A stretch of 64,000 nt of DNA from an uncultured Acidobacteriota bacterium. GTDB taxonomy: Bacteria > Acidobacteriota > UBA6911. The translations under genes were made by a program, and so were the position numbers. Of this stretch, positions 10,033-64,000 are shown one piece after another; the first letter of the stretch is position 1; the number at the start of each line of letters is the position of its first letter. The notes beneath the pieces were generated by a model. That model searched no databases. It was not told the origin of the DNA and saw nothing but the letters and a program-made list of their open reading frames with translations. The stretch is from the NCBI GenBank assembly GCA_963721405.1, contig CAVRJA010000014.1:909691-973690 (forward strand). Direction: 5' to 3'.

Positions 10033-10061
10033 TTCGGGGGACAGGCTACTCAACTCCCGAA

Positions 10062-10886: not shown

Positions 10887-12363
10887 CGAAGGGCCGGCGG
10901 ACGCCGGTCTTTCCGGGATCGACTTTGCGTTTGGGATCCGACAGGAATTCCCTGAGGATGCGGTTCGCCTCCGGGTGCGCGAACAGGGGAACGTGCGTCA
11001 TTCCGGCGAATACCACAAGTTGTGAACCAGGCAGGTGCGCCGCCGTCGTCCGTGACCAGCTGACGGGAGTATCGGGATCGAATTCACCGGCAGCGATGAG
11101 GGCGGGCGTGTTGCTGCGGACCGGCTCATTCTCGGCGGCTCGAGGCTTGCCCTGTGGCCAGACCTGCAGAGCCTCGAGCGGCACGGCCGCCTGGACAAAC
11201 CTGGCCAGTTCGGCCGGCAGTCCCGCCGGCTTCAGGATCCGCTCCAAACGCTCGAAGGGGAATTCTTCATTGCACCAGACCGCAAGCCGCACGCCCCAGG
11301 CGAATCCCTGGGACGAGGCGAGATAGGATTCGGCCAGCGGCGCCAGGACCGCCGAGTCGCCGCGGCTGGCCGTGTCGAGGAGCAGCGGCAGGCGCGGGAT
11401 GAAACCTGGATCCTCGAGGCCTGCATAGACGCAATTCATGATGCCGGCCCCGTCGAGCCGCACTGACAAGGGCTTCCCGTCGATCGGGTTTTTCAGCGCG
11501 AGCACCACCGGCTGCAGGTTGGCCGCTTCCAGGCAACGTCTCCACCGGTCTTCGAAGCCGTTCAGCTTCAGCCGAAGTTGCTCATTTTCCCGCGCCGCGG
11601 CAATCAGTCTTTGAAAGACGTCGACGATGATGGCAGGGGCGGACTCGTCCCAGTTTGACTCCAGGGTCAGGACCGAATCGAGAATAGCGGATCGCACCCC
11701 GTCCGGCCTGTCCCTCAGCACGCTCAGCATCAGCTTGGTGCTGTAGGAACTGCCATAGAGATTCCAGGATTTGATGCCCAGCAGTTTCCGGAGATCGGCG
11801 ATGTCTGCGGCACTTTCCCTGGTTGTATAGCCGGCCGGGTCGATCCCCTTGGACTCATACTCGTGCAAGGTCTCCAGCAAGGCCTGCTTGACCACGGCCG
11901 GGTCAGGGTCACCGTTTAGGCGGTGGCCCCATCCCGAGCGGAGCGCCTCCGCGATGCGCGGGGCCGTCAGGGAGGGATCGGCAAAAAGGGTGCCTCGCTG
12001 CTCCAGGAGAATAATGTCGCGGTCCTCGAGGAGGGGATTGCGGCTGCGGTTCCGCGCCCGGCCGAGGATGCTTCCCCCCGGGCCGCCTGCGGACACGAGG
12101 ACCGGGTCCGGGCTGGGCGCCTGGGACCGGCTTTTCATGATGATGAAGGGAAGCTTGATCTCGCGAATGCTCCTCGCCGGGAAACGGCGCTCAGGGACAA
12201 CCAGGTATCCGGTCCGCAGATCCGGACTCTTCTCCACAATCGACGAAGGGAGAGCAGTCCACTCGACCCGGACCACGTCCGCAGATTGGCCAAGCCCTGG
12301 ACCGACAGCAAGCAGGCTCAGAGTGGCTAACGTCAACGTGATTCGATTCGAGGTGCCAATCAT
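10837..12363 (-). CDS. secreted alpha/beta-hydrolase, peptidase S33 (TAP/proline iminopeptidase-like) family
   Basis: Signal peptide MIGTSNRITLTLATLSLLAVGPG. Nucleophile elbow YGSSYSTKL. Abhydrolase architecture with a C-terminal TAP-like region. Start trimmed from 12522, because the upstream 53 codons translate the MITE-like repeat. Confidence 0.7.
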   Translation of the reverse strand: MIGTSNRITLTLATLSLLAVGPGLGQSADVVRVEWTALPSSIVEKSPDLRTGYLVVPERRFPARSIREIKLPFIIMKSRSQAPSPDPVLVSAGGPGGSILGRARNRSRNPLLEDRDIILLEQRGTLFADPSLTAPRIAEALRSGWGHRLNGDPDPAVVKQALLETLHEYESKGIDPAGYTTRESAADIADLRKLLGIKSWNLYGSSYSTKLMLSVLRDRPDGVRSAILDSVLTLESNWDESAPAIIVDVFQRLIAAARENEQLRLKLNGFEDRWRRCLEAANLQPVVLALKNPIDGKPLSVRLDGAGIMNCVYAGLEDPGFIPRLPLLLDTASRGDSAVLAPLAESYLASSQGFAWGVRLAVWCNEEFPFERLERILKPAGLPAELARFVQAAVPLEALQVWPQGKPRAAENEPVRSNTPALIAAGEFDPDTPVSWSRTTAAHLPGSQLVVFAGMTHVPLFAHPEANRILREFLSDPKRKVDPGKTGVRRPFATSFLRAPAGHIRRSA

Positions 12364-12394
12364 ATACTGTCTCTCCCTCCCGACCTCTAGACCT

Positions 12395-12710
12395 TTAACT
12401 GGTTTCTGTCGCGAAACTTGAGTTCGACCACAGGGCCGAGCGCCCAGGAGGGGCGCCAGAGAGTAGCCGGGGGCAAGCGGCGCGCTTTTCAGCGACGCGC
12501 GGCCCCCGGTAGGAAGTTGCATTTAAACGAGCCCCGGCAGGGGCGAAAGGCTATGTGCGCCATAGGCTTCTGTCGCCGGGGCTCCTCGCTGTGCGATATC
12601 CTACCGGGGGCTGCGCGCTACGCGCTTGCCCCCGGCTATTCTCTGCGGCCCCTCCGGGGCCGAGATCTTGCGCGCCGATTGCGCTGCCAGGGAGTTTCGC
12701 GACAGAAACC
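12395..12710. mobile_element. MITE-like palindromic repeat element with 18-bp terminal inverted repeats
   Basis: TIRs are GGTTTCTGTCGCGAAACT (12395-) and AGTTTCGCGACAGAAACC (-12710). Internal hairpin units (AGAGAGTAGCCGGGGGCAAGC...GCCCCCGG and GAGCCCCGGCAGGGGCGA...). A related copy lies at 56640..56830. No transposase. Confidence 0.5.
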
Positions 12711-12790
12711 TGCCCCCAACCCCCAGAACCCAACACTCAGCACCCGGCACCTGATTCCCGGCACCCGGCGCTCAGCGCCTGCCCTCAGGC
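12711..12790. repeat. GC-rich tandem repeat array (same family as 7600..7665)
   Basis: cctgcccccaacccccagaacccaacactcagcacccggcacctgattcccggcacccggcgc, immediately abutting the MITE-like element. Confidence 0.6.
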
Positions 12791-13707
12791 GGGGGAAGAG
12801 GCTGCGCCACATCGAGCGTAACCTTCCAGACTCCGGCCGCGTCTCGTTTCCAGAACCTCGCGTAATAGTATTTGCCATCGCCGGGCAGGGCGCCTGCGCC
12901 GGCGGAGACGGCGAGCACTCCGTGCGTGTAACCGAGATCAGCGCCAGGAGCGACCACGGCTGCAGCCGGCTCCCAGGTCCACGCTCCTTTCCGCCGCTCC
13001 AGCCGGGCGATGATTGCGGGCTTGCCCAACGCCGGGGCCAGGTTCTGGCGCAGCAGCCGCGCATGGTCCGCGAGGTATGTCGCATAGGCGCGCTCCACCC
13101 CCTCTGATTTGGATTGGGCAGAGAATCCGCGGTCTGTCTCGAGCAGTTGCCTGCGTTCCGCTTCCGGATCTGAGGTTCCCGCACGTGGTGAAGATAGAGG
13201 CTTGAATTCAGCGGGCAGTTTCCAGGCAGGCGGCCGCGAATCCGGCGGAGGATTCGGTGCTCCGGCATCCAGGATCACCTGCCATTTTCCGCCCGGCTGT
13301 TTGCGCCAGACAGAGGCATAGTTCCCGTGCTGCACCGGGTTACCGGTTTTCCCGCTACGGAACTCATACGGCCCGGTCGTATAACCAAAGTCTCCCGTGC
13401 GCGAAATGTCCGCGACCGCCGGGTACCATGACAGAATGCCGCCGGATTCCGTGCTCTCCGAGTACAACTTCCTGCCGTCAACGGGTCCCGGGCGAAAGAC
13501 GATGCTTCCTTCGGCCAGGAACGCCAGAAAAGCCTTCCGGATCCCCTGCTCAGCAGCCGCCTTTGAAAAATCGAGCTCGGACTGAACCAGGCTCGAGAGT
13601 CCGGCCCTGAGATCCAATGCTTCGGCGGGCATGCCTGGTTTCAAACCTGCCGGCGCAACCAGAGCCCCCGCTGTTCCTGCTATGGCAAGCAACCATGGGT
13701 TCCGCAT
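12772..13707 (-). CDS. secreted protein with tandem NTF2/SnoaL-like (DUF4440-like) domains
   Basis: Signal peptide MRNPWLLAIAGTAGALVAPAG. Two halves with similar patterns (GSIVFRPGP...GKWQVILD and LAPALGK...GVWKVTLD). Start trimmed from 13842 to the internal Met at 13707. Confidence 0.5.
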   Translation of the reverse strand: MRNPWLLAIAGTAGALVAPAGLKPGMPAEALDLRAGLSSLVQSELDFSKAAAEQGIRKAFLAFLAEGSIVFRPGPVDGRKLYSESTESGGILSWYPAVADISRTGDFGYTTGPYEFRSGKTGNPVQHGNYASVWRKQPGGKWQVILDAGAPNPPPDSRPPAWKLPAEFKPLSSPRAGTSDPEAERRQLLETDRGFSAQSKSEGVERAYATYLADHARLLRQNLAPALGKPAIIARLERRKGAWTWEPAAAVVAPGADLGYTHGVLAVSAGAGALPGDGKYYYARFWKRDAAGVWKVTLDVAQPLPPPEGRR

Positions 13708-13911
13708 AAGCCCTTCCTGCGGGAGAAAACTGTCTGGGGGGTTGTGAAAACCGCTCCTCCTCCCGATCACGCAACCGCTGCCCGGGAGCGGCCCGACTCT
13801 CAAACCGTCTTGCCTCGAGGAACACAGTATAGCGCTTGGCAAGGCTCGGCCGGAGGGCTATAAATTGGCTGGGGATGAATGAGAGGAACCGCGTCCCGGG
13901 AGGAGGAATCG

Positions 13912-14217
13912 ATGAACATTGTCCACGTGCACGTTCACGTGAAGCCCGAACACCTGGAGGCGTTCAAATCGGCCACGATCGAGAACGCCCGCCACAGCGT
14001 CCAGGAGGAGGGAATCGCCCGCTTCGATGTGCTCCGGCAATCCGGCGACCCCTCCCGATTCATCCTCGTGGAGGTGTACCGAACTCCGGAAGCTCCGGCG
14101 CAGCACAAGCTCACTGCACACTACGCGAAGTGGCGCGACACGGTTGCTCCCATGATGGCGGAACCGCGGACCAGCGTGAGCTTTGACAACCTGTTCCCCC
14201 TAGACGATGGGTGGTGA
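13912..14217 (+). CDS. antibiotic-biosynthesis-monooxygenase (ABM) domain protein
   Basis: [43 protein letters not shown]...[22 protein letters not shown] is a typical ABM/YdhR-like dimeric ferredoxin fold. AGGAGGA RBS before the ATG at 13912. Confidence 0.75.
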
Positions 14218-14223
14218 TCCGCA

Positions 14224-15378
14224 ATGCGGTTCGAATTTGCCACGGCAACTCGTATCGTGTTCGGCGCCGGGACGGTCAAGGAAGCCGCGGCGGCAGCCCA
14301 GGAGATGGGGCGGCGGGCGTTTCTGGTGACCGGTTCATCCCCGGAACGTTGCCGGCATGTCGCGGAGGACCTTCAGGACCACGGCGTCTCAGTGACTGCT
14401 TATGCCGTCGGAAGGGAACCCGACACTTCGCTGGTGCGGGAAGGCCGCGAGCTCGCGCTCGCCGCGGGATGCGACCTGGTGATCGCGATCGGCGGGGGGA
14501 GCGTGATCGACGCCGGCAAGGCCATCGCCGCGCTGATGACCAACGAAGGCGCGCCGGCCGAGTACCTGGAAGTGGTCGGCAAGGGGCGCACGATTTCGCA
14601 GCCTCCGGCTCCGTTCATCGCCGTTCCTACGACTGCCGGCACCGGGTCCGAGGTCACGCGCAATGCGGTGCTGGCTTCCCCGGAACACCGGACGAAGGCC
14701 AGTATGCGCAGCCCCATGATGCTGCCGAGGCTGGCCATCGTGGATCCGGAACTCACTTTTGACGTGCCGCCCGCGATTACTGCCGGCACCGGCCTGGATG
14801 CTCTGACGCAGTTGATCGAGCCATACGTTTCGCTGCGCAGCAATCCGATCACCGATGCCTTGTGCCTCGAGGGCATGCGGCGCGTCAGCCGGTCCCTGCG
14901 CCGCGCTTATCTGGAGGGCAGGGACGCGTCCGCCCGGGCCGACATGGCGCTGGCGAGCCTCCTGGGCGGGATTGCCCTGGCCAATGCGGGTCTCGGCGTC
15001 GTTCACGGTTTCGCCGCGCCCATCGGGGGGATGTTCGGGGCGCCGCACGGGGCGACCTGTGCGATCCTGCTCGGCCCCGGAATGGAGGCGAACATCCGCG
15101 CCCTGAGGGAGCGCGCCCCGGGAAGCGAATGCCTGGCCAGATATCAGAGGGTGGCCGCCACGCTCGTAGGAAAACCGGATGCGGAGCCGGAAGACGGGCT
15201 GGCTTTCGTGCGCGGTCTGTGCACAGAGCTTTCCATCCCTCGCCTTCGCTCCTGCGGCATCGGGCAGACCGATGTCGAGCCGCTGGTGGAAAAAGCATCA
15301 GGCACGAGCAGTATGAAGGGAAATTCCATCGCCCTCACCCACCAGGAACTCACGGCCGCTCTCCTGCAGGCCCTGTGA
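14224..15378 (+). CDS. iron-containing (group III) alcohol dehydrogenase
   Basis: [13 protein letters not shown] motif and Fe-ADH metal-binding His-rich segments ([20 protein letters not shown]). Full-length, 384 aa. Confidence 0.9.
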
Positions 15379-24835: not shown

Positions 24836-27400
24836 CTAACGGACGCATCGGAATCCCACCTGTGATGAGCACAAGGTAGGCACGGATCCGCCTCGCCACG
24901 CGGAGCGCAACATTCTCGGGTCGTCATTCCACGCTCCGCCGCGAACCGTCCTTGTGCCGCCGGCCTGCAGATTTTCCCTCCCGTCGTCGCCCCGGTATGG
25001 GTAGGCCGCAAACAGGCCGGACGTCCATTCCGCGACGTTGCCCGACATGTCGTACAATCCCCACGCATTCCGTCGCATAGCATTCCCTGTCGGGAGGGTG
25101 CCGGTGGGGCTGTTGACTCCAAAATTCGGGTTGAACAACGGGCCCCACCAGTAAGCGCTTGTCGTTCCGGCGCGACAGGCATACTCCCATTCGGCCTCCA
25201 GCGGCAGCCGCTTCCCGACCCACCGTGCGTAGGCCAGTGCTGCGTGCCAGCTTACATCCCGGACCGGGTGGAACTCCGTTTCCGCAGGATACAGGTTCCC
25301 CATCCAGGTTTTCAGGTAGTTGCCGTCCACGTAGGGGCCAATCCTCGCGCTCCCCTTCTGCCATTGGGGGTTGGCAAGGACGAACGCCTGGAAGGCGCTG
25401 TTTGTGACTTCCATCGTGTCTATCCAAAAGCCTCTTGTGAAGCTCAGGCTGTGTACGGGCTCTTCGTATTGTGTGTGCCCATACTCCATGGCGGGGCTGC
25501 CCATAAGAAACGTCCCTGGCGGGATCCAGGCCATGGTGCTGCCGTCAGGCGATTTCCAGGTTGTGCCCAGAGCCGGGTTCGCGGGTGGATCGTCGGGATT
25601 CATGAATTTCTCAAACCCATCGGCGATATGGTTGGCCGCGTCCTTCCGGCTGCCGAGATCTTCCCAACCGGGGATTTTGTCCGTGGGCTTTTCGGCCACG
25701 GCTTTGCTTCGGCTCTCCGGGACAGGCTCTTGCCTTCGGACGGCAGAACTGGCAGCGGTGCCTGTAGCGCTCCCCGCACTCGCTTTCGGAGACTCCGGCG
25801 GTGCGGCGGCGGACCCGGCGCCGCTCTGCGAATCGCTGCCGGAGCTGCCGGGGGTAGATTGGGGAACGGTGCTCGAACTCGAGTCGTTCGCATACTCGTT
25901 GAAAATCCAATAGGCGGAAGGAACTGCGAGAACGACCGCGGAGCCCAGAATGAGCAATGCGGTCTTCCATGAACCGCGCGGCTTGGGAAGAGCTTCCCGG
26001 AAAATCTCGGCTTTCGGAGGCTCTTGCCTTTTCTTCATCGCCTCCCGACACCTGGCAAGCGCCTGCGAAAGCATGGTCTGGTTCGGGTCGGCCTGCAGGG
26101 ACTGCACCAGGTAGTTCTCGGCTTCCTGATATTTTCCCTGTGTCAGCAGGGAATCGGCGTGGATCAAGACCGTCTCGGCCCATTGCTTCTTCACTGCCTC
26201 GGCCTGCTGTCGCTCTGATTCCCTGCGCGCCGTTTCCTTCCTTTCCGCCTCCTCTTCCGCGCGGCGCCTGGAGGCCTCCTTCTTTTCAACATCGGTCTGC
26301 CGCTGTCGCGCCAGGGCAAGCGCGTCATTCAAGGCGGCGTCGCCTGGTTTCAGGGACAGCGCTTCTTCCCAGTTGGCGATAGCGTCGGCGTACCTGCCTT
26401 CGTCGAACGCCTTCGTCCCGCGCAACTTCAACAAGGCCAGAGTCGGCGCCAGTTCCGGCTGCCGGCTGTCGTCTTCCTTGCGCTGCAGCTCGTCGAGGAG
26501 TTCCTGGAGGCTGTGAAAGCGGTTTTCGGGTTTCTTCTCGATGCATTTCATGACGATGCGTCTGATCCCGTCGGATGCATCCAGGATCTCGCGAGGCGTC
26601 TTGTGGCGGATCTGTGCGGTGATCTCGCCGGTGATAAAAGGCGGGTCTCCGGAAAGCATCTCATAGAGAACGACACCCAGCGAGTACAGGTCACTCGCTT
26701 CTCCGCTCTCGCCGTCGAGCTGCTCCGGCGACATGTAGAGCAGGGTTCCCGAGTCCTGCTGCGAGGTGAGCCGCGACATCGAATCGCGGCACAGCCGCGC
26801 GATGCCGAAGTCTGCGATCTTGATGGACCCGTCTTTCCCGATCAGGATGTTTCCCGGCTTGAGGTCCCGGTGGACGATCCTCTTCTGGTGCGCGTGCTGT
26901 AGTCCCTTGCAGATCTCGATCGCGATCGCGCGGGTTTCTTCCTCGGGGAGTTTGCCCTTCCTGGCCAGGAGGTGGGCCAGCGATTCGCCTTCCACATACT
27001 CCATGACGAGAAACTTGACGGTCGGCGCGTCCTCGAAATTGTGCACCCGCACCACATTGGCATGCGAAAGCATCATGGAGTGCTTCGCTTCGGCAATCAG
27101 CCGGCGAACGGACCCCGGATCACGACTCAGGAGATCCCGCAGGACCTTGATGGCGACCGGCATCTCCAGTTTCTCGTCGTGGGCAAGATACACCCGTCCC
27201 ATGCCGCCCACTCCCAGTTCCCGGAGGATCCGGTAGCGATTCAGCAGCATCGTGCCCGGAGGCAGGGTCATCTCGGTGGGAGCGGACCTCAGCGGATCCT
27301 GCGGTTCAGAGGTCACCGGGGTTGGGGTGAGGTCGCGGCCACAGCAGGAACAGAAGCGGCCGTCGTCCGGATTACTCGCACGGCAGTAGTTGCAGAACAT
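24836..27400 (-). CDS. Ser/Thr protein kinase with N-terminal zinc ribbon, TPR-like linker, TM helix and C-terminal FGE-sulfatase (SUMF1-like) domain
   Basis: MFCNYCRASNPDDGRFCSCCG. Kinase subdomains (GVGGMGRVYLA, AIKVL, HRDLKPGNIL, DFGIA, SPEQ). TM (ALLILGSAVVLAVPSAYWIF). FGE-sulfatase motifs (WHAALAYARWVGKRLPLEAEWEYACRAG, NAWGLYDMSGNVAEWT, RVVRGGAW). Confidence 0.9.
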   Translation of the reverse strand: MFCNYCRASNPDDGRFCSCCGRDLTPTPVTSEPQDPLRSAPTEMTLPPGTMLLNRYRILRELGVGGMGRVYLAHDEKLEMPVAIKVLRDLLSRDPGSVRRLIAEAKHSMMLSHANVVRVHNFEDAPTVKFLVMEYVEGESLAHLLARKGKLPEEETRAIAIEICKGLQHAHQKRIVHRDLKPGNILIGKDGSIKIADFGIARLCRDSMSRLTSQQDSGTLLYMSPEQLDGESGEASDLYSLGVVLYEMLSGDPPFITGEITAQIRHKTPREILDASDGIRRIVMKCIEKKPENRFHSLQELLDELQRKEDDSRQPELAPTLALLKLRGTKAFDEGRYADAIANWEEALSLKPGDAALNDALALARQRQTDVEKKEASRRRAEEEAERKETARRESERQQAEAVKKQWAETVLIHADSLLTQGKYQEAENYLVQSLQADPNQTMLSQALARCREAMKKRQEPPKAEIFREALPKPRGSWKTALLILGSAVVLAVPSAYWIFNEYANDSSSSTVPQSTPGSSGSDSQSGAGSAAAPPESPKASAGSATGTAASSAVRRQEPVPESRSKAVAEKPTDKIPGWEDLGSRKDAANHIADGFEKFMNPDDPPANPALGTTWKSPDGSTMAWIPPGTFLMGSPAMEYGHTQYEEPVHSLSFTRGFWIDTMEVTNSAFQAFVLANPQWQKGSARIGPYVDGNYLKTWMGNLYPAETEFHPVRDVSWHAALAYARWVGKRLPLEAEWEYACRAGTTSAYWWGPLFNPNFGVNSPTGTLPTGNAMRRNAWGLYDMSGNVAEWTSGLFAAYPYRGDDGRENLQAGGTRTVRGGAWNDDPRMLRSAWRGGSVPTLCSSQVGFRCVR

Positions 27401-27486: not shown

Positions 27487-29274
27487 CTAATTCTTCTGTG
27501 CCGAGACCGTGCCCCAGCCCAGGGGGTTTTGAACCTGGCCGGTCATGTGGCGACCGTCGGGTGATACTTCGAGAGTGAGATTTGCCGGGATTGGCGGAGG
27601 AAGGGAATATCCATCCGCCTGATAACTGCCCCGGGAGCAGGTTGCGGTCAGGGTGCGTCCATTCAGGCTGCCCTCACAATCGTACTGCTCGACGATTCGA
27701 CTATGAAGCAGGCCGTCGAGCGCGATCCCCGAATAAGCAGCTAGGCAACTCAACTGCAAACGACTGTTCGCGCCGGTGATCTGCATCAGCCCCCTCACGT
27801 TGGTCGGGGCGACCGTATAAGACCACGCGCCTCCGAGATCCATTGCCGGCGGTGGAGGAGTGATCACCGGGGGAGGAATGCCCGGCGGGGGAGAGTACTT
27901 GGCCCCGGTACCGGCCGATTGAGACAGGATGTACGCGAATATCACCACGATCAGGAGGGCTGCGCCTGAAAGCACGATGATTTTCTTCACCGGCCTCGGA
28001 CGGGGGCCGGGTTCATTCATGAGTGGCGCCGCGCCCGGCGCCTGTTCCCGGCTCATCCTCCCGCGAGCCTCAGCGAGGCACGCCGTCAACCGGGGATGGT
28101 CCGGATGCTGCTGCAGGGCCTGTAGCAGCAAGTTCCGGGCATCCTGAATTCTCTCCTCCCGGAACATGAGCCTTGCCCGTGAGACAATATCATTGACCCA
28201 CGACTCTCCCGCATCTTCAGCCTGCCTGTGTCCCGCTTTCATGAGCGCGCGTTCGGCCTCTTCTGCACCCGGCACCGGGATCGCGGCCATCGCCGCTGTG
28301 GCGGTAGTGCCGGCGAGTTCCTTGCAGAGCTCGCGCGCGCTGGCAAAGCGGTCCTCCGGCTTCTTTTCCAGGCATTTCATGACGATGCGGCGCATCAGGG
28401 GAGACAGCCCCTCGATCTCTTTCGGGGCCTTGTAACGGATCTGAGCCGTGATCTCGCCCGTAGTGAATGGGGGGTCCCCGGAGAGCATCTCGTAGAGCAT
28501 GATGCCGAACGAGTATATGTCGCTTGCTTCCCGGCTCTCGCCATCCAGCTGTTCGGGTGACATATACAGGAGAGTTCCCGAGTCCTGTTGCGAGGTCAGG
28601 CGCGACACCGAGTCGCGGCAGACGCGCGCGATCCCGAAATCCGCGAGTCTGACCGAGCCGTCATTGCCCAGCAGGACGTTCCCCGGCTTCAGATCACGGT
28701 GAATGACTTTCTTCGAATGAGCGTGTTCCAGGCCTTTGCAGATCTCTATGGAGAGGCACCGCGATTCTTCCTCGGGGATTCTCCCTTCGCGGGCGATTCT
28801 GTGGGCGAGGGTTTCGCCTTCCACATATTCCATGACGAGGAACTTCGCCGTTTCCCCGTCCTCGAAATTGTGCAGGCGGATGATGTTCGGGTGCGCGAGT
28901 GTGATGGAGGCCTTGGCTTCGGAAATCAGCCTCCTGACGGAGCCCGGGTCCTGCCTCAGGATGTCGCGCAGCACCTTGACGGCGACCGGCATTCCGAGCT
29001 TCTGGTCCTCGGCCAGGTACACTCGTCCCATGCCTCCGGCGCCCAACTCCCGGACAATCTTGTATCGGCCCGACAGCATGGAACCTGTTTGCAATCCCAA
29101 CTCAGTTGCCGACGAGGCGAGCGCATCCACGGGTCCCGGTCCGTCCCGGCCGGCTCGCATACCGCCGCCGGTTCGTGGGGTCGTGGGCCGCAGTTCGGCC
29201 CTGCAGGAGCAGCAGAAGCGATCTTCTCCGCCGCATTCCGCTCCGCATTGAGGGCAATATCGTGTATCGGTCAT
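27487..29274 (-). CDS. Ser/Thr protein kinase with N-terminal zinc ribbon and C-terminal extracytoplasmic domain
   Basis: MTDTRYCPQCGAECGGEDRFCCSCRAEL. Kinase motifs (GAGGMGRVYLA, HRDLKPGNVLL, DFGIARV). TM (KKIIVLSGAALLIVVIFAYIL). Tandem paralog of the upstream kinase. Confidence 0.9.
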   Translation of the reverse strand: MTDTRYCPQCGAECGGEDRFCCSCRAELRPTTPRTGGGMRAGRDGPGPVDALASSATELGLQTGSMLSGRYKIVRELGAGGMGRVYLAEDQKLGMPVAVKVLRDILRQDPGSVRRLISEAKASITLAHPNIIRLHNFEDGETAKFLVMEYVEGETLAHRIAREGRIPEEESRCLSIEICKGLEHAHSKKVIHRDLKPGNVLLGNDGSVRLADFGIARVCRDSVSRLTSQQDSGTLLYMSPEQLDGESREASDIYSFGIMLYEMLSGDPPFTTGEITAQIRYKAPKEIEGLSPLMRRIVMKCLEKKPEDRFASARELCKELAGTTATAAMAAIPVPGAEEAERALMKAGHRQAEDAGESWVNDIVSRARLMFREERIQDARNLLLQALQQHPDHPRLTACLAEARGRMSREQAPGAAPLMNEPGPRPRPVKKIIVLSGAALLIVVIFAYILSQSAGTGAKYSPPPGIPPPVITPPPPAMDLGGAWSYTVAPTNVRGLMQITGANSRLQLSCLAAYSGIALDGLLHSRIVEQYDCEGSLNGRTLTATCSRGSYQADGYSLPPPIPANLTLEVSPDGRHMTGQVQNPLGWGTVSAQKN

Positions 29275-57100: not shown

Positions 57101-58339
57101 ATGTCTCCGGCCCCCTCAGTCACCGGCACACGCACCCTGGCCCCCGACGCAATCATCCTGTTTGTCACCCGTATCGTGAGATTGTTCGCCTACGGGTTTC
57201 TTTCCGTTATCCTGGCTCTCTACCTTGCCGAGCTGGGATTGAGCGAAGCCGCCATCGGCGGACTTTTCACCTTCACGCTCCTCGGGGATGCGGGCATTTC
57301 GCTTTGGATCACCACCTCCGCCGACCGGATCGGCCGCAGACGCATGCTTCTGCTCGGCGCGTTTCTGATGATTTTCGCCGGCATCCTGTTTGCGCTCACG
57401 GCGGAATTTGTCGTGCTGGTTGTCGCGGCGATTATCGGAGTCATCAGCCCGAGCGGCAATGAGATCGGACCTTTTCTCTCCATCGAACAGGCCGCCCTGT
57501 CGGAGATCCTCCCGGACCGTCATCGCACCCGTGTCTTTGCCTGGTACAACCTGGTCGGTTCGTTTGCGACCGCGACCGGGGCTTTGGCGAGCGGCGGGCT
57601 GGTGCAAGTGCTCCAGGCTGTCGGCTACACTCCTCTGGAGAGTTACCGTGTTGTGGTCGTCGGATATTCGCTTGTGGGTTTTGTGCTGGTGCTGCTGTTC
57701 AGCCGCCTGTCGGCGCACATCGAGGCTGTACAGAAGGCGATTCTGCCGCGCAGATTAGGCCTGCACCGGTCACGGACGGTAGTGGTCAAGCTGTCGGCGT
57801 TGTTCGCGCTGGACGCTTTTGCCGGCGGTTTCATCGTGCAGTCCCTGCTCGCCTATTGGTTCCGGATGCGCTGGGGCGTCGAACCGGCCGTGCTTGGCGG
57901 CGTCTTTTTCGGCGCCAACGTCCTGGCCGGGATTTCGGCGCTCACTGCGGCGCGCATCGCGGATCGCATCGGACTGATTAAGACGATGGTCTTGACGCAC
58001 ATCCCATCCAACATACTGCTGATGTTCGTGCCGCTGATGCCCAATCTGCCGCTGGCAGTGGCCGTCCTCCTGGCGCGATTCTCGATTTCGCAGATGGATG
58101 TGCCCACGCGGCAATCGTACACGATGGCCGTTGTCGCCCCCGACGAGCGCTCCGCCGCCTCGGGCGTCACAACGATCGCCCGATCGATCGGCGCGGCCTG
58201 GTCCCCCTGGCTCACGGGCGCATTGCTGCAGACTGCCTTCATTTCGACTCCATTCTTTCTGGCAGGCGGACTCAAGATCGCTTACGATCTGCTGATCTAT
58301 CGCAGTTTCCACGCCCTGAAGCCGCCGGAAGAGACGTAG
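57101..58339 (+). CDS. MFS transporter
   Basis: 412 aa with 12 predicted TM helices. MFS signature-like loop GxxxDRxGRR (SADRIGRRRM, ARIADRIG). Confidence 0.85.
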   Translation: MSPAPSVTGTRTLAPDAIILFVTRIVRLFAYGFLSVILALYLAELGLSEAAIGGLFTFTLLGDAGISLWITTSADRIGRRRMLLLGAFLMIFAGILFALTAEFVVLVVAAIIGVISPSGNEIGPFLSIEQAALSEILPDRHRTRVFAWYNLVGSFATATGALASGGLVQVLQAVGYTPLESYRVVVVGYSLVGFVLVLLFSRLSAHIEAVQKAILPRRLGLHRSRTVVVKLSALFALDAFAGGFIVQSLLAYWFRMRWGVEPAVLGGVFFGANVLAGISALTAARIADRIGLIKTMVLTHIPSNILLMFVPLMPNLPLAVAVLLARFSISQMDVPTRQSYTMAVVAPDERSAASGVTTIARSIGAAWSPWLTGALLQTAFISTPFFLAGGLKIAYDLLIYRSFHALKPPEET

Positions 58340-58570
58340 CCGTCAGCCGCACCACTCACGGCGGATTTCCCTCGGTATATTGCTCCGAGAGTGAACCCCT
58401 CATATCTTCTAGCCCGTAATTGACGATTCGTTTACAATGGAGACAGTCGACTCACAAATTCTCACTACTTACGCCGGCAGCCGATGGTATCTGGGCGACC
58501 CCTTCCCGGCAGGCGAGTTTGGCGCAGCCTGGAAGCGGGGGCTTTGCACACAGACTGGCAGGTGGACGGC

Positions 58571-61408
58571 ATGGACGCCGAACGCTGGCAACAGATCATG
58601 CGCATCCTCGAGCCGCTGCTGAACCAGCCGCCCGCCGATCTGAACGCTTACCTCGATCAGGCCTGTGCGGGAAACCGGGAATTGAGGCGCGAGGTCGAAT
58701 CCATGATTGCAATGGATCGCGAGGGCGGCTTTTTCGAGGCGCACAGCAATGAACTGGGAGCACTGGCGGCGGATTTTTTTAACTACAACGCGCCCCTGCT
58801 TTCCCCGGGAACCCGCGTCGCGGGCTATGTAATAGAAAGTTTTCGGGGCCGCGGCGGCATGGGTGCCGTCTATCGGGCGCAAGATGCAAAACTGCGGAGG
58901 GCGGTGGCGATCAAGGTCCTGGCCACGCGTGTCCTCCAGGACACGGATGCGCGCCGGCGCTTCCTGATCGAAGCCCGAGCACTCGCGCAGATCAGCCATC
59001 CCAATATCGTAACCGTCTACGATGTCGACCGCTCGGACGATGTTGACTTCATCGCCATGGAGTGGATTGAAGGGAGCAGGCTGGACCAACTGATCGGAGA
59101 AGAAGGCCTCCCTCTGGACGATGCGTTGAGATGCGCCGTTCAGGTTGCAGACGCGCTCGCTCTGGCGCATGCAAAGGGCATTGTCCACCGCGACCTGAAA
59201 CCCTCGAACATCATGATCACCTCCACCGGCTCGGTAAAAGTTCTCGACTTCGGCCTGGCGAAGCTCTCGAGAGAGAGGCCCGCCGAAGATTCAACCGTCA
59301 GCGACAACACCGTCACAGCCACGGGGAGGATCATCGGCACTGCGGACTACATGTCGCCGGAACAGGCATTGGGAAAAGTCGTTGACTGGCGCTCGGACAT
59401 ATTCAGCTTCGGCTCCGTAGTGTACGAGATGATTTCCGGCCGGCATCCGTTCATTGGAGACTCGGCCATCGCTACGGTCGCGGCTATCATCAAGGATGAG
59501 CCACAGCCTCTCGACGCCAGAGTCCCCGCCGGTCTTCAGTCGGTTGTGCGACGCTGTCTGAGAAAAGAACCAGGAGAACGATTCCAGGCGATGGCCGACG
59601 TCAAGGCCGCGCTCGACCAGATCAGTCAGGAACGGTGGATCGCGCGGTTGCCGAATCGAGGCGGATCTCTGTCCGGGAGAGCCAGGAATGCCGGGTTGGC
59701 GGTGCTCCTCCTTACTGTCGCGGCGCTGGCGGCATTCTCCCTATGGCGATTATGGACAGATGCGGCTGCCGGCCAACGGCTGCCTGAGTTTGTAGTCAGT
59801 CAGATAACCAGCAGCTCAAGCTGGGAGGGCGAACCTGAAATATCACCGGACGGCAACCGGGTCGCATTCTCGTCCAATGCATCCGGCAACTCCGATATGT
59901 ATGTGACGGATATTGACGGGAGGGGACAACAGCAGATCACGACCGATCCGGCCGAAGACGGCCAGGCTGTGTGGTATCCGGACGGCAGCGCCATTGCTTT
60001 TTTCTCTGACCGGAATGGCAGGCCGGGAATCTGGAAGACCGGCCCCCTCGGCGGAGGGGCGACGCCACTGATTGAAAATGCCATTTACCCGGCGATATCG
60101 CCGGATCACACCAGGATTGCGTTTGATCGGATAACACCGAGCGGATTCGGCATCGCCGTGGCGCCGTTGAACAATCCTGAGAAAATCAATATGCTTACCA
60201 ATCGCCCCGGCGAGCCTGTTTCTGCCGGCAATCCTGCCTGGTCGCGGGACAGCCGCCGGATCTGCTATGTAGACCGGCAGGAGTTGTGGATCGTAGACGC
60301 CTCGGGCGGCAGCCTGAGGCAGCTGACGTTCGACGGACAATATAAGGACGATCCGTGCTGGTCTCCAGACGGCAGCCGTATCTATTACTCTTCTTATCTG
60401 GGCGGCGCACGGGCAATCTGGCGGATCAGTTCCGATGGAGGGGCTTCCGAGCGGGTGACTGCCGGCACTGCGCAAGAGAGCCACCCGAGCATCTCCAGGG
60501 ATGGCACGCGGCTTGTGTATGCCACCGACAGCACGGAGCGAGGGATTGCAGTTGTCGACAGGCGTTCAGGTGCGAGGACCTTCGTACCGGGGCGCCAATG
60601 GTTCATGCCCTCGATTTCCAGAGATGGTTCCCTGGTGGTGTTTATCTCGATCCGTTCAGGCTTTGACGTCACGCTTTGGATGCAGAAGCTGGAAAACGGC
60701 CGGCCGGCGGACGTGCCCAATCTGCTGGCGCGACTCGAAGGGAATCTGTCCCAACCCGCCATTTCGCCCGATGGGAAATGGATCACTTGCCTCCGGATAC
60801 TCAACAACAAACGGGAAATTCTCAGCATTCCCTCGTCCGGCGGGAATCCGATCCAGCTTACCGAGGAGCCACCCATGAGTGTGACCCCGGCCTGGTCGCC
60901 GGATGGATCCATGATCGCCTTCGCCACGAAGAGCGGCGCGGGCTCGGAAATACGCACTGCCCGTGTGGTAAACGGCAGCCGTGACGGCGCCTTCCGCAAG
61001 GTCGCAGCTTCGGATGCAATTGCTTATGCTCCTTCCTGGTCGCCCGATGGGGGAATGCTGGCCTACATGGAGTCGCGGGGAAGTCAGTCGGAGGCATGGA
61101 TCGTTCCGAGTAACGGCAGCGCCCCGCCGCGACCAATCGTAAAAGGTGTAACTGCCAAGCGGGTCGTATGGGACCCGGACACGGGCGACCTTCTCGTCAG
61201 CGCCGCCTGGGCGAACGATAAAGTCACGATCCGCAGAGTGTCCGTCGCGACAGGCGTTTCCACCCCTTTTCTTCCCGAGATCGAGTTTGGCGGAGTCCAG
61301 GCCAACGGGCTGTTCGATGTTTCCGCGGACGGTAAATGGCTGGTGTTTACGAAGGAGGATGTATCAGGCCATATCTGGATGTTGAAAGCCACAAAAGGCG
61401 TCTTTTAA
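58571..61408 (+). CDS. Ser/Thr protein kinase with TM helix and C-terminal TolB-like (PD40) beta-propeller
   Basis: Kinase motifs (GRGGMGAVYRA, AIKVL, HRDLKPSNIMI, DFGLAKL, SPEQ). TM (LAVLLLTVAALAAFSLW). Repeated SPDG..IAF/YSS PD40 blades. Start at the internal ATG (MDAERWQQIM) with AGGTGGA RBS. Confidence 0.85.
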   Translation: MDAERWQQIMRILEPLLNQPPADLNAYLDQACAGNRELRREVESMIAMDREGGFFEAHSNELGALAADFFNYNAPLLSPGTRVAGYVIESFRGRGGMGAVYRAQDAKLRRAVAIKVLATRVLQDTDARRRFLIEARALAQISHPNIVTVYDVDRSDDVDFIAMEWIEGSRLDQLIGEEGLPLDDALRCAVQVADALALAHAKGIVHRDLKPSNIMITSTGSVKVLDFGLAKLSRERPAEDSTVSDNTVTATGRIIGTADYMSPEQALGKVVDWRSDIFSFGSVVYEMISGRHPFIGDSAIATVAAIIKDEPQPLDARVPAGLQSVVRRCLRKEPGERFQAMADVKAALDQISQERWIARLPNRGGSLSGRARNAGLAVLLLTVAALAAFSLWRLWTDAAAGQRLPEFVVSQITSSSSWEGEPEISPDGNRVAFSSNASGNSDMYVTDIDGRGQQQITTDPAEDGQAVWYPDGSAIAFFSDRNGRPGIWKTGPLGGGATPLIENAIYPAISPDHTRIAFDRITPSGFGIAVAPLNNPEKINMLTNRPGEPVSAGNPAWSRDSRRICYVDRQELWIVDASGGSLRQLTFDGQYKDDPCWSPDGSRIYYSSYLGGARAIWRISSDGGASERVTAGTAQESHPSISRDGTRLVYATDSTERGIAVVDRRSGARTFVPGRQWFMPSISRDGSLVVFISIRSGFDVTLWMQKLENGRPADVPNLLARLEGNLSQPAISPDGKWITCLRILNNKREILSIPSSGGNPIQLTEEPPMSVTPAWSPDGSMIAFATKSGAGSEIRTARVVNGSRDGAFRKVAASDAIAYAPSWSPDGGMLAYMESRGSQSEAWIVPSNGSAPPRPIVKGVTAKRVVWDPDTGDLLVSAAWANDKVTIRRVSVATGVSTPFLPEIEFGGVQANGLFDVSADGKWLVFTKEDVSGHIWMLKATKGVF

Positions 61409-61422
61409 ACAGGAGGGTTCCA

Positions 61423-61698
61423 ATGAAGAAAATCAGGGTAGACGATCTGGTGTACCTGCGCGATCAGATCGACAGGGGAGGCCTGGCAGCACTCAGGGTA
61501 CTGGGGCAACCTTGGCCGTGGTCGATTGCGAGGGTTTGTATGGCGGCTCCTGATGATCAATCTGAGCCGAGCACAGCGGACCTGGAGAAATTTCGCACTA
61601 ATCTGGAGAATGCCATCGAACATCTGAGAGCTCATCCCATGGAAGAGCCGAGCCTGCCTGAAGGGTCAGAATCGCTCAGATGGGTGATTGCCCGCTGA
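61423..61698 (+). CDS. small hypothetical protein upstream of radical SAM/SPASM enzyme (candidate precursor or partner)
   Basis: AGGAGGG RBS before the ATG giving MKKIRVDDLVYLRDQIDRGG...WVIAR (91 aa). 15 nt before the rSAM gene. Confidence 0.4.
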   Translation: MKKIRVDDLVYLRDQIDRGGLAALRVLGQPWPWSIARVCMAAPDDQSEPSTADLEKFRTNLENAIEHLRAHPMEEPSLPEGSESLRWVIAR

Positions 61699-61713
61699 TG
61701 GCGACCCAGAGAT

Positions 61714-62952
61714 TTGAAGATGCCTGAAGGATCCTCCGGCGCCCCTCATCGGAGAGTGGCGAACGCCGAGGAAGTCCACAACCTGATCTTCATCCTGACT
61801 GCACAATGCAATCTGCGTTGCGCTTACTGCTATCAGACTGCAAAGAAGACCGTAAGCCTGCCGTGGGACGTCTTGAGGGACTCGATTGACCTCGTTTTCG
61901 GGTCCGGTTCACACAACATCACACTCCTGTTTACCGGCGGAGAACCCCTTCTCGAGTGGGCGCTGCTCCAGAAGGCGTTCGAGTATGTAAGCGCGAATAC
62001 GTCGTACGCTACGCGCGCAAGATTTGAAATCAGCACAAACGGGCTCCTGCTCACGCATGAGATCGCACAGTTTCTCGACGAACATCGGTTCGGAGTCCAA
62101 CTGAGCTTTGACGGGATTGCGAACGCACAGGAGTACCGGTGCGCCGGTTCCTTCACGGCGTTGAACAGTCTCCTGGACAGATTGCGCGCAAAGCAGCCGG
62201 GTCTGTTCAGCCGGAGATTGCGGATCGTTACGACTCAGATCCCGGACACGGTTTGCTTCCTGGCGGAGTCCATCCGCTACCTGCTCGGGAAAGGCGTGAC
62301 GGAAATCGGCATTTCTCCCAGTCTCACGCCATCTCCCGGGTGGACTAAAGAAGGGATTCAGATCCTCGACGTCCAGTTCCGGCGGGTCTACGACGACAGC
62401 ATGCGCCATCTTGAGAAGACGGGGGAGGTGCCGCTGACGTTATTCCGAAAATGGCAGGATGACAGCGACGTCATGAGTGGACACGGAAGTTGCAGCGCGG
62501 TGAGCGGCAAGACGGTGGTCGTTGATGCGACCGGGCAGGTATACGGGTGCGCCATGTTCGCGGAATCTTACCAGGACTTGCCGCCAGGACTTCTCCAGCA
62601 TCAGCTGGCTCCCCTCAGAATGGGGTACCTGCAGGACGGGACTCTCCAGGCACAGCGCGCTGCATATAGGGCTGCGATCGCAAAATCGGAATTGTTCGGC
62701 GGCATGGAGAGGAGATATTCCTCTTACGGCAAGTGCGTTGACTGCCCCTATGTGAACTCCTGCCGGGTGTGTCCGGTTTCGATCGGTTACGATCCAGGCG
62801 ATGCCGATCCCTATCGTGTCTCGGATTTCATTTGTGCATTCAGCAGGATCGCACTCAAGTATCGTGCGATGTTTCCCGGCATGCCGAAACCACTGGACGA
62901 ACTGAACGCGCTTCTGAAGAGGATCATCACGGAGAAACCGGGTGCGGGCTGA
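61714..62952 (+). CDS. radical SAM protein with C-terminal SPASM domain (peptide/protein-modifying maturase type)
   Basis: CNLRCAYCYQ is the CxxxCxxC radical SAM cluster motif. Auxiliary-cluster Cys run (GHGSCSAV...GCAMF...CVDCPYVNSCRVCP) typical of SPASM/twitch domains. Confidence 0.85.
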   Translation: MKMPEGSSGAPHRRVANAEEVHNLIFILTAQCNLRCAYCYQTAKKTVSLPWDVLRDSIDLVFGSGSHNITLLFTGGEPLLEWALLQKAFEYVSANTSYATRARFEISTNGLLLTHEIAQFLDEHRFGVQLSFDGIANAQEYRCAGSFTALNSLLDRLRAKQPGLFSRRLRIVTTQIPDTVCFLAESIRYLLGKGVTEIGISPSLTPSPGWTKEGIQILDVQFRRVYDDSMRHLEKTGEVPLTLFRKWQDDSDVMSGHGSCSAVSGKTVVVDATGQVYGCAMFAESYQDLPPGLLQHQLAPLRMGYLQDGTLQAQRAAYRAAIAKSELFGGMERRYSSYGKCVDCPYVNSCRVCPVSIGYDPGDADPYRVSDFICAFSRIALKYRAMFPGMPKPLDELNALLKRIITEKPGAG

Positions 62953-62993
62953 AGCGAAGCCGCCCGCTTCAAGGCCCCGGCGGTGAGGTTCGA

Positions 62994-63200
62994 TCAGGCG
63001 TCTGCGTCCCACAGTCGCTTGCGGAAGTAGTCTTTCCAGCCGTCCGGCAGAGCGCCGAGCTCGCTGGTGCGGCGGAGCAGGTCCTGGTTTTCGGCATTCG
63101 ACGTGTAGAGATTGACGATGTCTGCGATCGTCAATCCGTTGTCGGGGGGACTTGCGTACTCGATCGCATCGCCGGATGCGACTTCTCCCTCGCGAAGCAC
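62994..63200 (-). CDS. hypothetical small protein (low confidence)
   Basis: 68-aa ORF 13 nt downstream of the beta-barrel gene. No family recognised. Confidence 0.2.
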   Translation of the reverse strand: MLREGEVASGDAIEYASPPDNGLTIADIVNLYTSNAENQDLLRRTSELGALPDGWKDYFRKRLWDADA

Positions 63201-63212
63201 TGCCAGGGGTAT

Positions 63213-64000
63213 TCAGAAGTATTTCTTGAAGCCGGCGAAGAGGGTGGCCGGAATCGAACCGTATTCGCTGCGCGGGATTTGTCCGGGGGCGTGGCGGCTG
63301 CCGATACCGAGCTGCGCCCCGAGGAGAATATCGGAGTTGTTTCCCGTCGACCAGGTGAATGTGGGCAGCCAGAGGGCGGAAGGGTCGTTTCCGTTGACGA
63401 GCAGCGTGTTGGCAAATACCCAGAGCGGATGGAATTGCCAGGTCGTGGCCACGCCGGCATAGACCCTCCCGAGGCCGTTGATCTCCCCGCGCAGAATCCT
63501 GTCGGCCGCGACCAGGGAATAGTATTCGGAAGGATCCGCCGCTCCATATCCGTTCCAGGCCAGTTCCAGCGTCAGGGTAACCGTAGGGGCCAACTGCCGG
63601 TCGGCGCCGAGCGTGCCCCGCCAGAAGTCCGCCCGGTCGCGGGCCTGATCTTCCGGGTCTCCCGCATGGGTCCATGTCAGCTCCCCGCGCAGTCCGGTGC
63701 CGGCCAGCGACGATGTAAAAAATCCCCCGGCCACGGTGTCGCGGTGGAACTTGCCCCCCATGAATCCGAGATCGACACGCCCCGCATGAATTCGCGCAAG
63801 CGCGCCGGCGGCCCAATCCTTCGAGGGTGCAGAACCGAGGGATGCCCCGACGACGTCGATCTCCGAATAGGATCCCATGGGAATCGTGAATCGGACGGCG
63901 TCCACGCCGGGCTTGTAGTCACGGTCGATGCGCTCGGGAGAGAACGGAGCGAAGAGATCCATCCCCGGCCAGAAATAGGAGACCCCCCAGGATATGGGTT
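63213..64000 (-). CDS. outer-membrane beta-barrel protein, C-terminal part (5' end beyond window)
   Basis: Alternating amphipathic beta-strands, Gly/aromatic-rich, C-terminal ...FAGFKKYF with terminal Phe. The reading frame stays open past 64000. Confidence 0.45.
   Translation of the reverse strand, partial: PISWGVSYFWPGMDLFAPFSPERIDRDYKPGVDAVRFTIPMGSYSEIDVVGASLGSAPSKDWAAGALARIHAGRVDLGFMGGKFHRDTVAGGFFTSSLAGTGLRGELTWTHAGDPEDQARDRADFWRGTLGADRQLAPTVTLTLELAWNGYGAADPSEYYSLVAADRILRGEINGLGRVYAGVATTWQFHPLWVFANTLLVNGNDPSALWLPTFTWSTGNNSDILLGAQLGIGSRHAPGQIPRSEYGSIPATLFAGFKKYF

Follow-up and report, generated by a model that had tools for sequence, protein, structure and literature searches.

Radical S-adenosylmethionine (SAM) enzymes that carry a SPASM domain and are paired with small peptides are a main source of new peptide chemistry. 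In CteB (SCIFF type; PDB 5WGG/5WHY), the sactisynthases and the ranthisynthases, a TIM barrel is joined to a seven-Cys SPASM domain, and the partner in CteB-type systems is a small Cys-containing open reading frame (ORF) immediately upstream, the CteB-type substrate having six Cys in 45 residues. PapB and the CXXX-repeat maturases begin directly at the radical SAM core and have substrates with repeated C-x3-D or CXXX motifs. Sulfatase-maturating enzymes of the anaerobic type (anSMEs; PDB 4K36-4K39, TIGR03942) modify one Cys or Ser residue in a protein, and their partner is a sulfatase. QhpD cross-links Cys of a small subunit, QhpC, that stays in a functional complex and is not secreted, in systems that include amine dehydrogenase genes. 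Here we compare with these systems a cassette found in a 64,000-nucleotide stretch of DNA from an uncultured Acidobacteriota bacterium (contig CAVRJA010000014.1, positions 909,691 to 973,690; hereafter the window), which encodes a protein kinase with a TolB/PD40 propeller, a 91-aa small protein and a radical SAM/SPASM enzyme. No cassette of kinase, small ORF and radical SAM gene turned up in full-text searches of the literature; the radical SAM-SPASM peptide systems of PMC7159879 are components of vWA-MoxR/FtsH ternary systems and not of this cassette.

The kinase, small-ORF and radical SAM genes (58484-62952; Table 1) are one conserved cassette. Scanning a genome collection and metagenomes, and looking up single homologues, yielded 91 related loci. 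Loci were assigned to the near clade if their radical SAM protein, aligned with the window enzyme, scored at least approximately 0.5 bit per residue of the alignment, and the synteny of this clade was read from 50 loci in which 450 nt or more precede the radical SAM core. In 46 of the 50, which could be scored directly, the gene of a homologous protein with kinase domain, transmembrane helix and PD40/TolB propeller lies immediately upstream and in the same orientation; L021, L028 and L061 have a fragment at the contig edge that matches the kinase C-terminus, and L042, with too little DNA, was left out of the tally. The order kinase, small ORF, radical SAM gene is found in all 49 informative near-clade loci, which span Terriglobia, Acidobacteriota metagenome-assembled genomes and a complete genome of Candidatus Eiseniibacteriota. 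In L001, L002, L004 (the Eiseniibacteriota locus), L085-L089 and L091 the three genes were seen to be co-directional. The kinase-TolB gene had been regarded in the preliminary description of this DNA as a mere neighbour hinting at a sulfatase role; it turns out to be the gene with which the cassette invariably begins. Genes outside the trio vary among the eight related loci with Pfam-annotated neighbours (they include an MFS transporter, an aldehyde dehydrogenase, a fucosidase, a HAD hydrolase and a TonB-type receptor), and no sulfatase, protease, exporter or RiPP recognition element (RRE; RiPP, peptide made on the ribosome and modified after translation) gene recurs in them.

In a more distant clade of the radical SAM family (25-32% identity), the small ORF again lies directly upstream of the radical SAM gene, and 9 of the 20 loci with enough DNA have a convergent downstream gene for a Zn-ribbon-kinase-transmembrane-TPR protein of approximately 1030-1050 aa. 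The occurrence of the cassette in two phyla and with two kinase architectures argues for functional coupling; the related loci are mostly metagenomic, so shared ancestry is not fully separable from independent retention. All cassette kinases have a single transmembrane helix right behind the kinase domain. In the window protein a Hanks-type kinase domain is followed by one such helix (approximately residues 400-418) and then by the TolB/PD40 propeller, and the position of this single helix directly after the kinase domain places the propeller, or the TPR domain, outside the cytoplasm.

Several loci show variations around the kinase. The kinase of L091 (745-3654) has an extra N-terminal DNA-binding domain of the OmpR/PhoB type (Trans_reg_C) before the kinase domain and propeller. 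In the kinase-less loci L046 and L076 the gene 5' of the small ORF encodes a transmembrane protein of 600-650 aa, whose C-terminal part resembles a Trans_reg_C/TPR protein of L085. On the 3' side of the cassette in L004, positions 9366-14437 hold two consecutive unannotated gene pairs (555 and 277 aa; 561 and 278 aa) in what looks like a tandem duplication of a two-gene unit of no assigned function.

The three window genes are closely spaced. The small ORF starts 14 nt after the kinase stop codon, and the preliminary description correctly placed a 91-aa ORF with an AGGAGGG ribosome-binding site 15 nt ahead of a 412-aa enzyme with a CxxxCxxC core (C32, C36 and C39). These figures apply to a TTG start at 61714; the ATG at 61720 gives 410 aa and a gap of 21 nt, and the public gene calls on the contig are 91 aa for the small ORF and 410 aa for the radical SAM gene. 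For the kinase gene, ATG 58571 is likely the true start and gives 945 aa, matching the public call. A scan of 58000-63300 found no terminator, and promoter-like sites were no commoner there than expected by chance.

Table 1. Positions in the window of the cassette genes and of the sites discussed in the text
Feature	Position	Strand	Remarks
Kinase with TolB/PD40 propeller (gene 1)	58484..61408	+	Pfam Pkinase 2.3e-46, PD40 2.1e-50
Shine-Dalgarno sequence AGGAGGG	61411..61417	+	Read from the sequence; 5 nt 5' of the small-ORF ATG
Small protein of 91 aa, proposed radical SAM substrate (gene 2)	61423..61698	+	ATG 61423, TGA 61696-61698
Cys39 codon (TGT), sole Cys of the window small protein, proposed modification site	61537..61539	+	
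Radical SAM/SPASM enzyme (gene 3)	61714..62952	+	Pfam Radical_SAM 6e-12
CxxxCxxC (C32-x3-C36-x2-C39), ligands of the radical SAM [4Fe-4S] cluster	61807..61830	+	
SPASM domain (C260, C279, C341, C344, C350, C353, C374)	62491..62835	+	Alignment of 24 homologues

The gap between the kinase and radical SAM genes is typically 270-450 nt long, and when the longest ORF in it was chosen blindly, an ORF of at least 35 aa was present in 46 of 46 related loci. An all-against-all phmmer comparison grouped these small ORFs into recurring sequence families that are found only at this position; jackhmmer searches recovered 13 members from the small ORF of L053, including that of the near-clade locus L091, and 10 from that of L036. 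Pairwise dN/dS values of 0.3-0.7 correspond to moderate purifying selection. The small ORFs are real, fast-evolving genes, as judged from the position-specific families, the dN/dS values, the strong ribosome-binding site and the public gene call. Their products range from 34 to 159 aa and usually have one or a few Cys residues.

At least one Cys is present in all 70 curated small ORFs (48 from the near clade and 22 from the distant clade) and in all 46 of the blindly chosen ones. If Cys makes up approximately 1% of an average bacterial protein, a 90-aa protein will have at least one Cys about 60% of the time, and its presence in every copy by chance, across some 30 independent families, is very unlikely. 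The surroundings of the Cys are rich in Gly (23% at position -3) and Pro (16-19% at +2, +4 and +5), as in NCPPPE, DCPPPP, KCDPPP, GGPPC and RCPPD, and in six near-clade small ORFs the Cys is the final residue. Amphipathic helices adjoin the Cys stretch, with a loose motif, (V)T-phi-x-D/H-L-x3-L-x2-I, in many copies and a recurrent Thr at the helix N-cap that is a possible kinase target, the candidate in the window copy being Thr51. A hidden Markov model (HMM) of the helix motif built from 17 small ORFs picks out ORFs at the same position, a result that is largely circular, and gives the window ORF a weak score of 8 bits. The rule for ranthipeptides, in which the Cys lies near Asp, Glu or Asn, was rejected as a general description of the family, as there is no enrichment: the near/far ratios for Asp and Glu, within four residues of the Cys versus further away, are 1.11 and 0.91 in the 70 small ORFs.

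Some lineages have more than one Cys-containing unit. Two tandem Cys-containing small ORFs precede a single radical SAM gene in L017 (1947-2554), L082 (4464-4933) and L083 (4434-4976), an arrangement that resembles multi-precursor RiPP loci; the two of L017 share the motif CTKGGP(V/I)3. Repeated Cys motifs also occur inside the small proteins of L025, L031, L039, L022/L023 and L064, among them PIPTG(x)C (twice), KVNP-x(3-4)-SC (twice), GGAQCA(R/N)EYA (two or three times) and, in L064, a duplicated unit of helix plus NCPPP. These repeats suggest that several modification sites exist in some lineages. Long tails rich in Lys, Ala and Pro, such as KKAGKKKAGKKAKKKAKKKAK, are found at the C-terminus in L006, L036 and L048 and at the N-terminus in L017, L021, L025 and L031, and recall histone-H1-like or polyanion-binding tails.

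The window copy itself had been described as lacking a recognizable family, and this was borne out: it has no match in Pfam or NCBIfam (E <= 0.01) or in PADLOC, it is its own sole match among 5.8 billion proteins, and jackhmmer started from it found no matches among all ORFs of the 91 loci. Its tie to the family consists of position, size, the Cys and weak motif similarity. The AlphaFold2 model has low confidence (predicted local distance difference test score, pLDDT, 55) and contains helices at residues 6-19 and 51-70, no strands and an unstructured Cys region; Cys39 (of 91) is central, lying between the helices in a segment rich in Pro and Trp. This layout of helix, Cys loop and helix is shared with the nearest relatives, L001, L002 and L086. 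An hhalign comparison with the L001 family profile matched PWPWSIARVC...PSTADLEKF to PPPPPVTSRCFKK...RVTVDHLKV, weakly (E = 0.088) and in the same order, namely Pro-rich segment, Cys and T-x-x-D-L helix. Of the two forms of conservation that the preliminary description proposed to look for, that of the small ORF is found, as its position is kept in every informative locus, but a C-terminal core peptide is absent from the window copy, the Cys of which is central. The window copy and the small protein of L089 (2879-3124) share an N-terminal K-I-(R/K)-V-(D/H)-D-L and, near the Cys, Q-P-(x)-W-P-(W/Y). Trp is otherwise rare in the small-ORF family, and the shared elements could mark a subfamily-specific core; an aromatic cross-link is conceivable.

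As previously suggested, the product of the third gene belongs to the radical SAM/SPASM proteins and is of the peptide-maturase type. It scores 46.5 bits against the radical SAM core model (PF04055; cut-off 29.5), and the CxxxCxxC cysteines are conserved in at least 90% of an alignment of 24 homologues. Radical_SAM and Fer4_12 are its sole Pfam matches, the Pfam SPASM model giving none. All seven SPASM cysteines are nevertheless present and invariant in the 24 homologues, with the spacing C-x2-C-x5-C-x2-C, a variant of C-x9-15-G-x4-C ... C-x2-C-x5-C-x3-C ... C, and the assignment also fits the fold, since the enzyme model resembles SPASM enzymes in Foldseek searches. The preliminary description was right about the Cys-rich SPASM tail, but its count of seven or more Cys in the last 120 aa was too high: the seven lie in the last 153 aa, and the last 120 aa hold only five (C341, C344, C350, C353 and C374), C260 and C279 being further upstream.

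Searches with the NCBIfam models placed the enzyme among the peptide-modifying radical SAM-SPASM maturases, to which all its good matches belong, and near the cut-off of none of them. The best match is PapB (NF047865; 124 bits against a cut-off of 340), with lower scores for the CXXX-repeat maturase (TIGR04115; 89 against 350), HxsB (88 against 370), QhpD (TIGR03906; 78 against 453), anSME (TIGR03942; 62.1 against 349.45) and the SCIFF maturase (TIGR03974; 58.6 against 425). The HMM comparison against SPASM subfamilies proposed in the preliminary description thus confirmed the peptide-maturase type without assigning a subfamily, no curated cut-off being passed among the anSME, PapB, SCIFF and QhpD models tried, and no curated model covers this radical SAM family. 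The family comprises 317 representatives at 50% identity (E <= 1e-30) and more than 545 metagenome loci. Many homologues are called 'AslB' in the automatic annotation of JGI; this label, or that of sulfatase maturase, is very probably a misannotation. PADLOC found no specific defence system for the radical SAM gene or the small ORF. A role in anti-phage defence was rejected, as the PADLOC matches are generic domain matches, to the radical SAM core of viperin and to the kinase domains of PD-T4-6 and mad6.

The AlphaFold2 model of the enzyme (pLDDT 86) has a TIM barrel that begins at residue 23, and there is therefore no N-terminal RRE domain. CteB is its best solved match both by profile, where the 24 homologues give 103 bits against 82 bits for anSME, and by fold (Foldseek E = 1e-15, template modelling score, TM, 0.66), while anSME is an equally near structural match (TM 0.66-0.75, the upper value on the target). 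The next neighbours are ChlB, which has been crystallized with the leader region of its precursor, TigE, SkfB and SuiB; identity to the structural neighbours is 13-18%.

The likeness to CteB extends to the ligands of auxiliary cluster I: in profile alignment with 4K36/4K37, C260 of the enzyme aligns with C255 of anSME, and the further Aux-I ligand of anSME, C261, lies in an insertion without counterpart in the enzyme or in CteB. In CteB, auxiliary cluster I reportedly leaves one iron site open, to which the Cys of the substrate binds. In contrast, identity between the two enzymes is only 15-18%, CteB has an N-terminal RRE that the window enzyme lacks (the matched region of CteB, like that of the SCIFF profile, starts at residue 93), and the cassette substrates, with one or a few Cys in 34-159 aa (a single Cys in the window), differ from the Cys-rich CteB-type precursor. 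We know of no CteB/SCIFF-type system in which a kinase is an obligatory partner. At six 'catalytic proximity' sites, mapped by hand through the CteB alignment, the enzyme family has Tyr, variable, variable, Ser, Ala/Val and Met/Leu, and CteB has Phe, Phe, Thr, Ser, His and Gln (PMC10288494), a side-by-side comparison from which no class is drawn. The last two of these are the His363-Gln364 pair (PMC10288494) that follows the Aux-I Cys of CteB.

PapB and the CXXX-repeat maturases are of similar size to the enzyme, and their models match the window enzyme and the distant clade nearly over the full length with 100-124 bits (distant clade against PapB, 100-118 bits), but these scores are about one third of the trusted cut-offs, and the cassette substrates lack the repeated motifs: the window peptide has a single Cys and no Cys-x3-Asp, and neither Asp nor Glu is enriched in the 70 ORFs. 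QhpC/QhpD is the closest conceptual analogue of an intracellular modified small protein, but the enzyme scores far below the QhpD cut-off, its match starts at profile position 89, so that the N-terminal extension of QhpD is missing, and no amine dehydrogenase genes are present, the partner being a kinase. The cassette works like a radical SAM-SPASM RiPP or protein-maturation pair, yet it falls outside the definitions of the anSME, PapB, SCIFF, QhpD and PqqD-type RRE families. The enzyme stands between the thioether-forming enzymes and anSME in sequence, and its reaction may accordingly be new.

As expected of a RiPP, in which the precursor gene adjoins that of the modifying enzyme, the small ORF is directly upstream in every informative locus. 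From this co-inheritance, the peptide-maturase relatives of the enzyme and its CteB-like seven-Cys SPASM domain, we infer that the small protein is the substrate and its Cys the target. The reading we favour, to which we give about an even chance, is that a radical SAM/SPASM maturase without an RRE modifies a dedicated small protein at its invariant Cys, with the kinase as functional partner. The enzyme would recognize the amphipathic helix of the small protein; as in CteB, the thiolate of the substrate Cys would ligate the iron site that auxiliary cluster I leaves open; and 5'-deoxyadenosyl radical chemistry would then modify the Cys, most likely by an intramolecular thioether cross-link, the most economical chemistry. 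The kinase would either phosphorylate the modified small protein or be controlled by it. Since the usual accessory genes of RiPPs (protease, exporter and RRE) are missing, secretion of a classical natural product is not what one would first expect. The absence of conserved protease and exporter genes, together with the central Cys of the window subfamily, argues for a modified small protein that probably remains in the cell and is not a secreted antibiotic.

Several findings weigh against this interpretation. The window small protein is a sequence orphan, and its link to the family, by HMM and by hhalign, is weak. A conserved residue that could accept a thioether was not found, nor are acidic residues enriched around the Cys; in contrast to typical sactipeptides and ranthipeptides, many copies contain just one Cys; and the Ala/Val and Met/Leu that follow the Aux-I Cys ligand do not match the corresponding pair of CteB. 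The sensor domain of the kinase is extracytoplasmic, yet the small protein has no recognizable export signal, and fewer than half of the distant-clade loci with enough DNA (the 9 of 20 above) show the kinase.

The export of a product is the core of the first competing explanation, in which the small protein is a leader-core precursor released by proteases and exporters encoded elsewhere and then sensed by the kinase propeller or TPR domain, in an autocrine or quorum-sensing loop. The pairing of a more conserved helix with a hypervariable Cys stretch does resemble RiPP precursors, tandem or internally repeated cores are present in L017, L025, L031, L039, L082 and L083, and all cassette kinases have, behind their one transmembrane helix, extracytoplasmic folds of peptide-binding type (TolB propeller or TPR). 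We nevertheless consider such a signal rather unlikely, because the loci with annotated neighbours have no conserved protease, transporter or recognizable cleavage site, the Cys of the window copy and its nearest relatives lies between two helices and not in a C-terminal core, and many copies have long Lys-rich tails that are atypical of secreted cores.

A second explanation concerns the chemistry. The lack of a conserved acceptor and of acidic enrichment, and the many single-Cys copies, make anSME-like oxidation a serious rival to thioether formation: the invariant Cys would be converted to C-alpha-formylglycine (or undergo a related C-beta oxidation), giving a reactive aldehyde on a protein that is not a sulfatase. 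Modification of one Cys requires no acceptor residue, the enzyme and anSME are alike in length and in having no RRE, and the structural match, with full coverage of anSME, is as close as that to CteB, anSME also being matched by profile with 82 bits. A single Cys with Pro nearby also recalls the sulfatase motif C-x-P-x-R, as in CSPER of L076, CPPD of L046 and CPPE of L051. This motif is not general in the small proteins, however, the Cys being the very last residue in the six near-clade copies mentioned above. The anSME model is matched far below its cut-off, and without C261 the enzyme has just seven of the eight ligands of the clusters. Furthermore, Asp277 of anSME is reportedly the general base, and the residue at this position, after C279 (C276 of anSME), is Ala, Val, Thr, Pro, Leu or Ile in the 24 homologues and never Asp. 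On balance this chemistry seems unlikely.

It has also to be considered whether the small protein serves as adaptor, chaperone or partner in recognition (RRE-like, or a regulator of the kinase), the enzyme modifying the kinase or an unlinked protein. The enzyme has no RRE of its own, the small protein is mostly helical with a recurring amphipathic helix motif, and the kinase is the other invariant partner. PqqD-type RREs, however, have a conserved winged helix-turn-helix with a three-stranded sheet. The RiPP-recognition role that the preliminary description had offered as an option is unlikely for a family too variable for such a fold and an all-helical, if low-confidence, model; the small ORF was rejected as an RRE, as it has no match to PF05402 or in NCBIfam and only helices are predicted. 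For the adaptor function as a whole, the extreme sequence turnover and the lack of a predicted beta-sheet are unfavourable, the sole universal feature is the Cys, as expected of a substrate of a Cys-directed SPASM enzyme, and the kinase ectodomain, a propeller in one clade and a TPR domain in the other, does not look like a conserved target. We regard it as improbable. Least probable by far is an ordinary AslB/anSME serving sulfatases elsewhere in the genome, with an incidental small ORF, for which the 'AslB' names of homologues and a kinase with an FGE-sulfatase domain elsewhere in the window might speak, but which is opposed by the low score with the anSME model, the loss of two anSME hallmarks, the lack of an adjacent sulfatase in the window and the eight annotated loci, and the retention of small ORF and kinase in every informative locus.

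The sulfatase-maturase role named as an alternative in the preliminary description is thus not borne out (TIGR03942, 62 bits against 349). Neither in the window nor in the eight annotated loci does a sulfatase, the bearer of the C/S-x-P/A-x-R motif, adjoin the radical SAM gene, the rest of the genome not having been surveyed for sulfatases. The candidate pair was to be given up if the enzyme clustered with anSMEs next to a sulfatase and the small ORF was not conserved; instead, the enzyme does not cluster with anSMEs, no sulfatase is adjacent and the small ORF is conserved in position.

Returning to the favoured interpretation, a dedicated small protein modified at its Cys, the part of the kinase can be considered. 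Going by synteny alone, the kinase may phosphorylate the small protein, be regulated by it, or sense an exported product through its ectodomain. Hanks-type kinase domains tied to ribosomal peptide modification have precedents in the TOMM kinase/cyclase fusion (TIGR03903) and in LanKC/LanL, which the window kinase matches through the shared kinase domain only; those kinases belong to YcaO/TOMM or phosphorylation-elimination (lanthionine) chemistry, have other architectures, and none is paired with a radical SAM-SPASM enzyme or bears a TolB propeller. It is possible, if doubtful, that the cassette is a previously unrecognized kind of bacterial signalling module, in which a single-pass Ser/Thr kinase of receptor type, its ectodomain a TolB propeller or TPR domain, is firmly coupled to a ribosomally made small protein that the radical SAM enzyme matures at one Cys and that acts as ligand, substrate or switch. 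Were this so, the matured product might be an autocrine peptide signal or a regulator gated by redox state or anaerobiosis, its maturation would be oxygen-sensitive, and each lineage would, through the rapid divergence of its small protein, possess a signal of its own. The Acidobacteriota have large, functionally opaque families of receptor-type Ser/Thr kinases, and the small protein and its maturase, as a defined partner pair, would offer a first experimental handle on what one such family senses or controls.

Elsewhere in the window, two tandem kinases of the Zn-ribbon-Pkinase-TPR type are encoded at 24836-27400 and 27487-29274, both on the minus strand, and their layout matches that of the partner kinases of the distant radical SAM clade. 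The former ends in a transmembrane helix and an FGE-sulfatase domain (PF03781, 6.5e-50). FGE and the anSME-type radical SAM enzymes both target Cys in sulfatase maturation, a parallel that may or may not matter here. Downstream of the cassette, the ORF at 63213-64000 (minus strand; 249 aa from an internal start, 402 aa in the public call, which runs past the window edge) has no match in Pfam or NCBIfam. Between them, convergent with the radical SAM gene, a 68-aa ORF (62994-63200, minus strand), which is present as a gene in the public assembly too, consists of the YiiM 3-alpha helical domain alone (PF03475, 1.2e-6) and represents either a fragment on its own or what is left of a MOSC-family gene.

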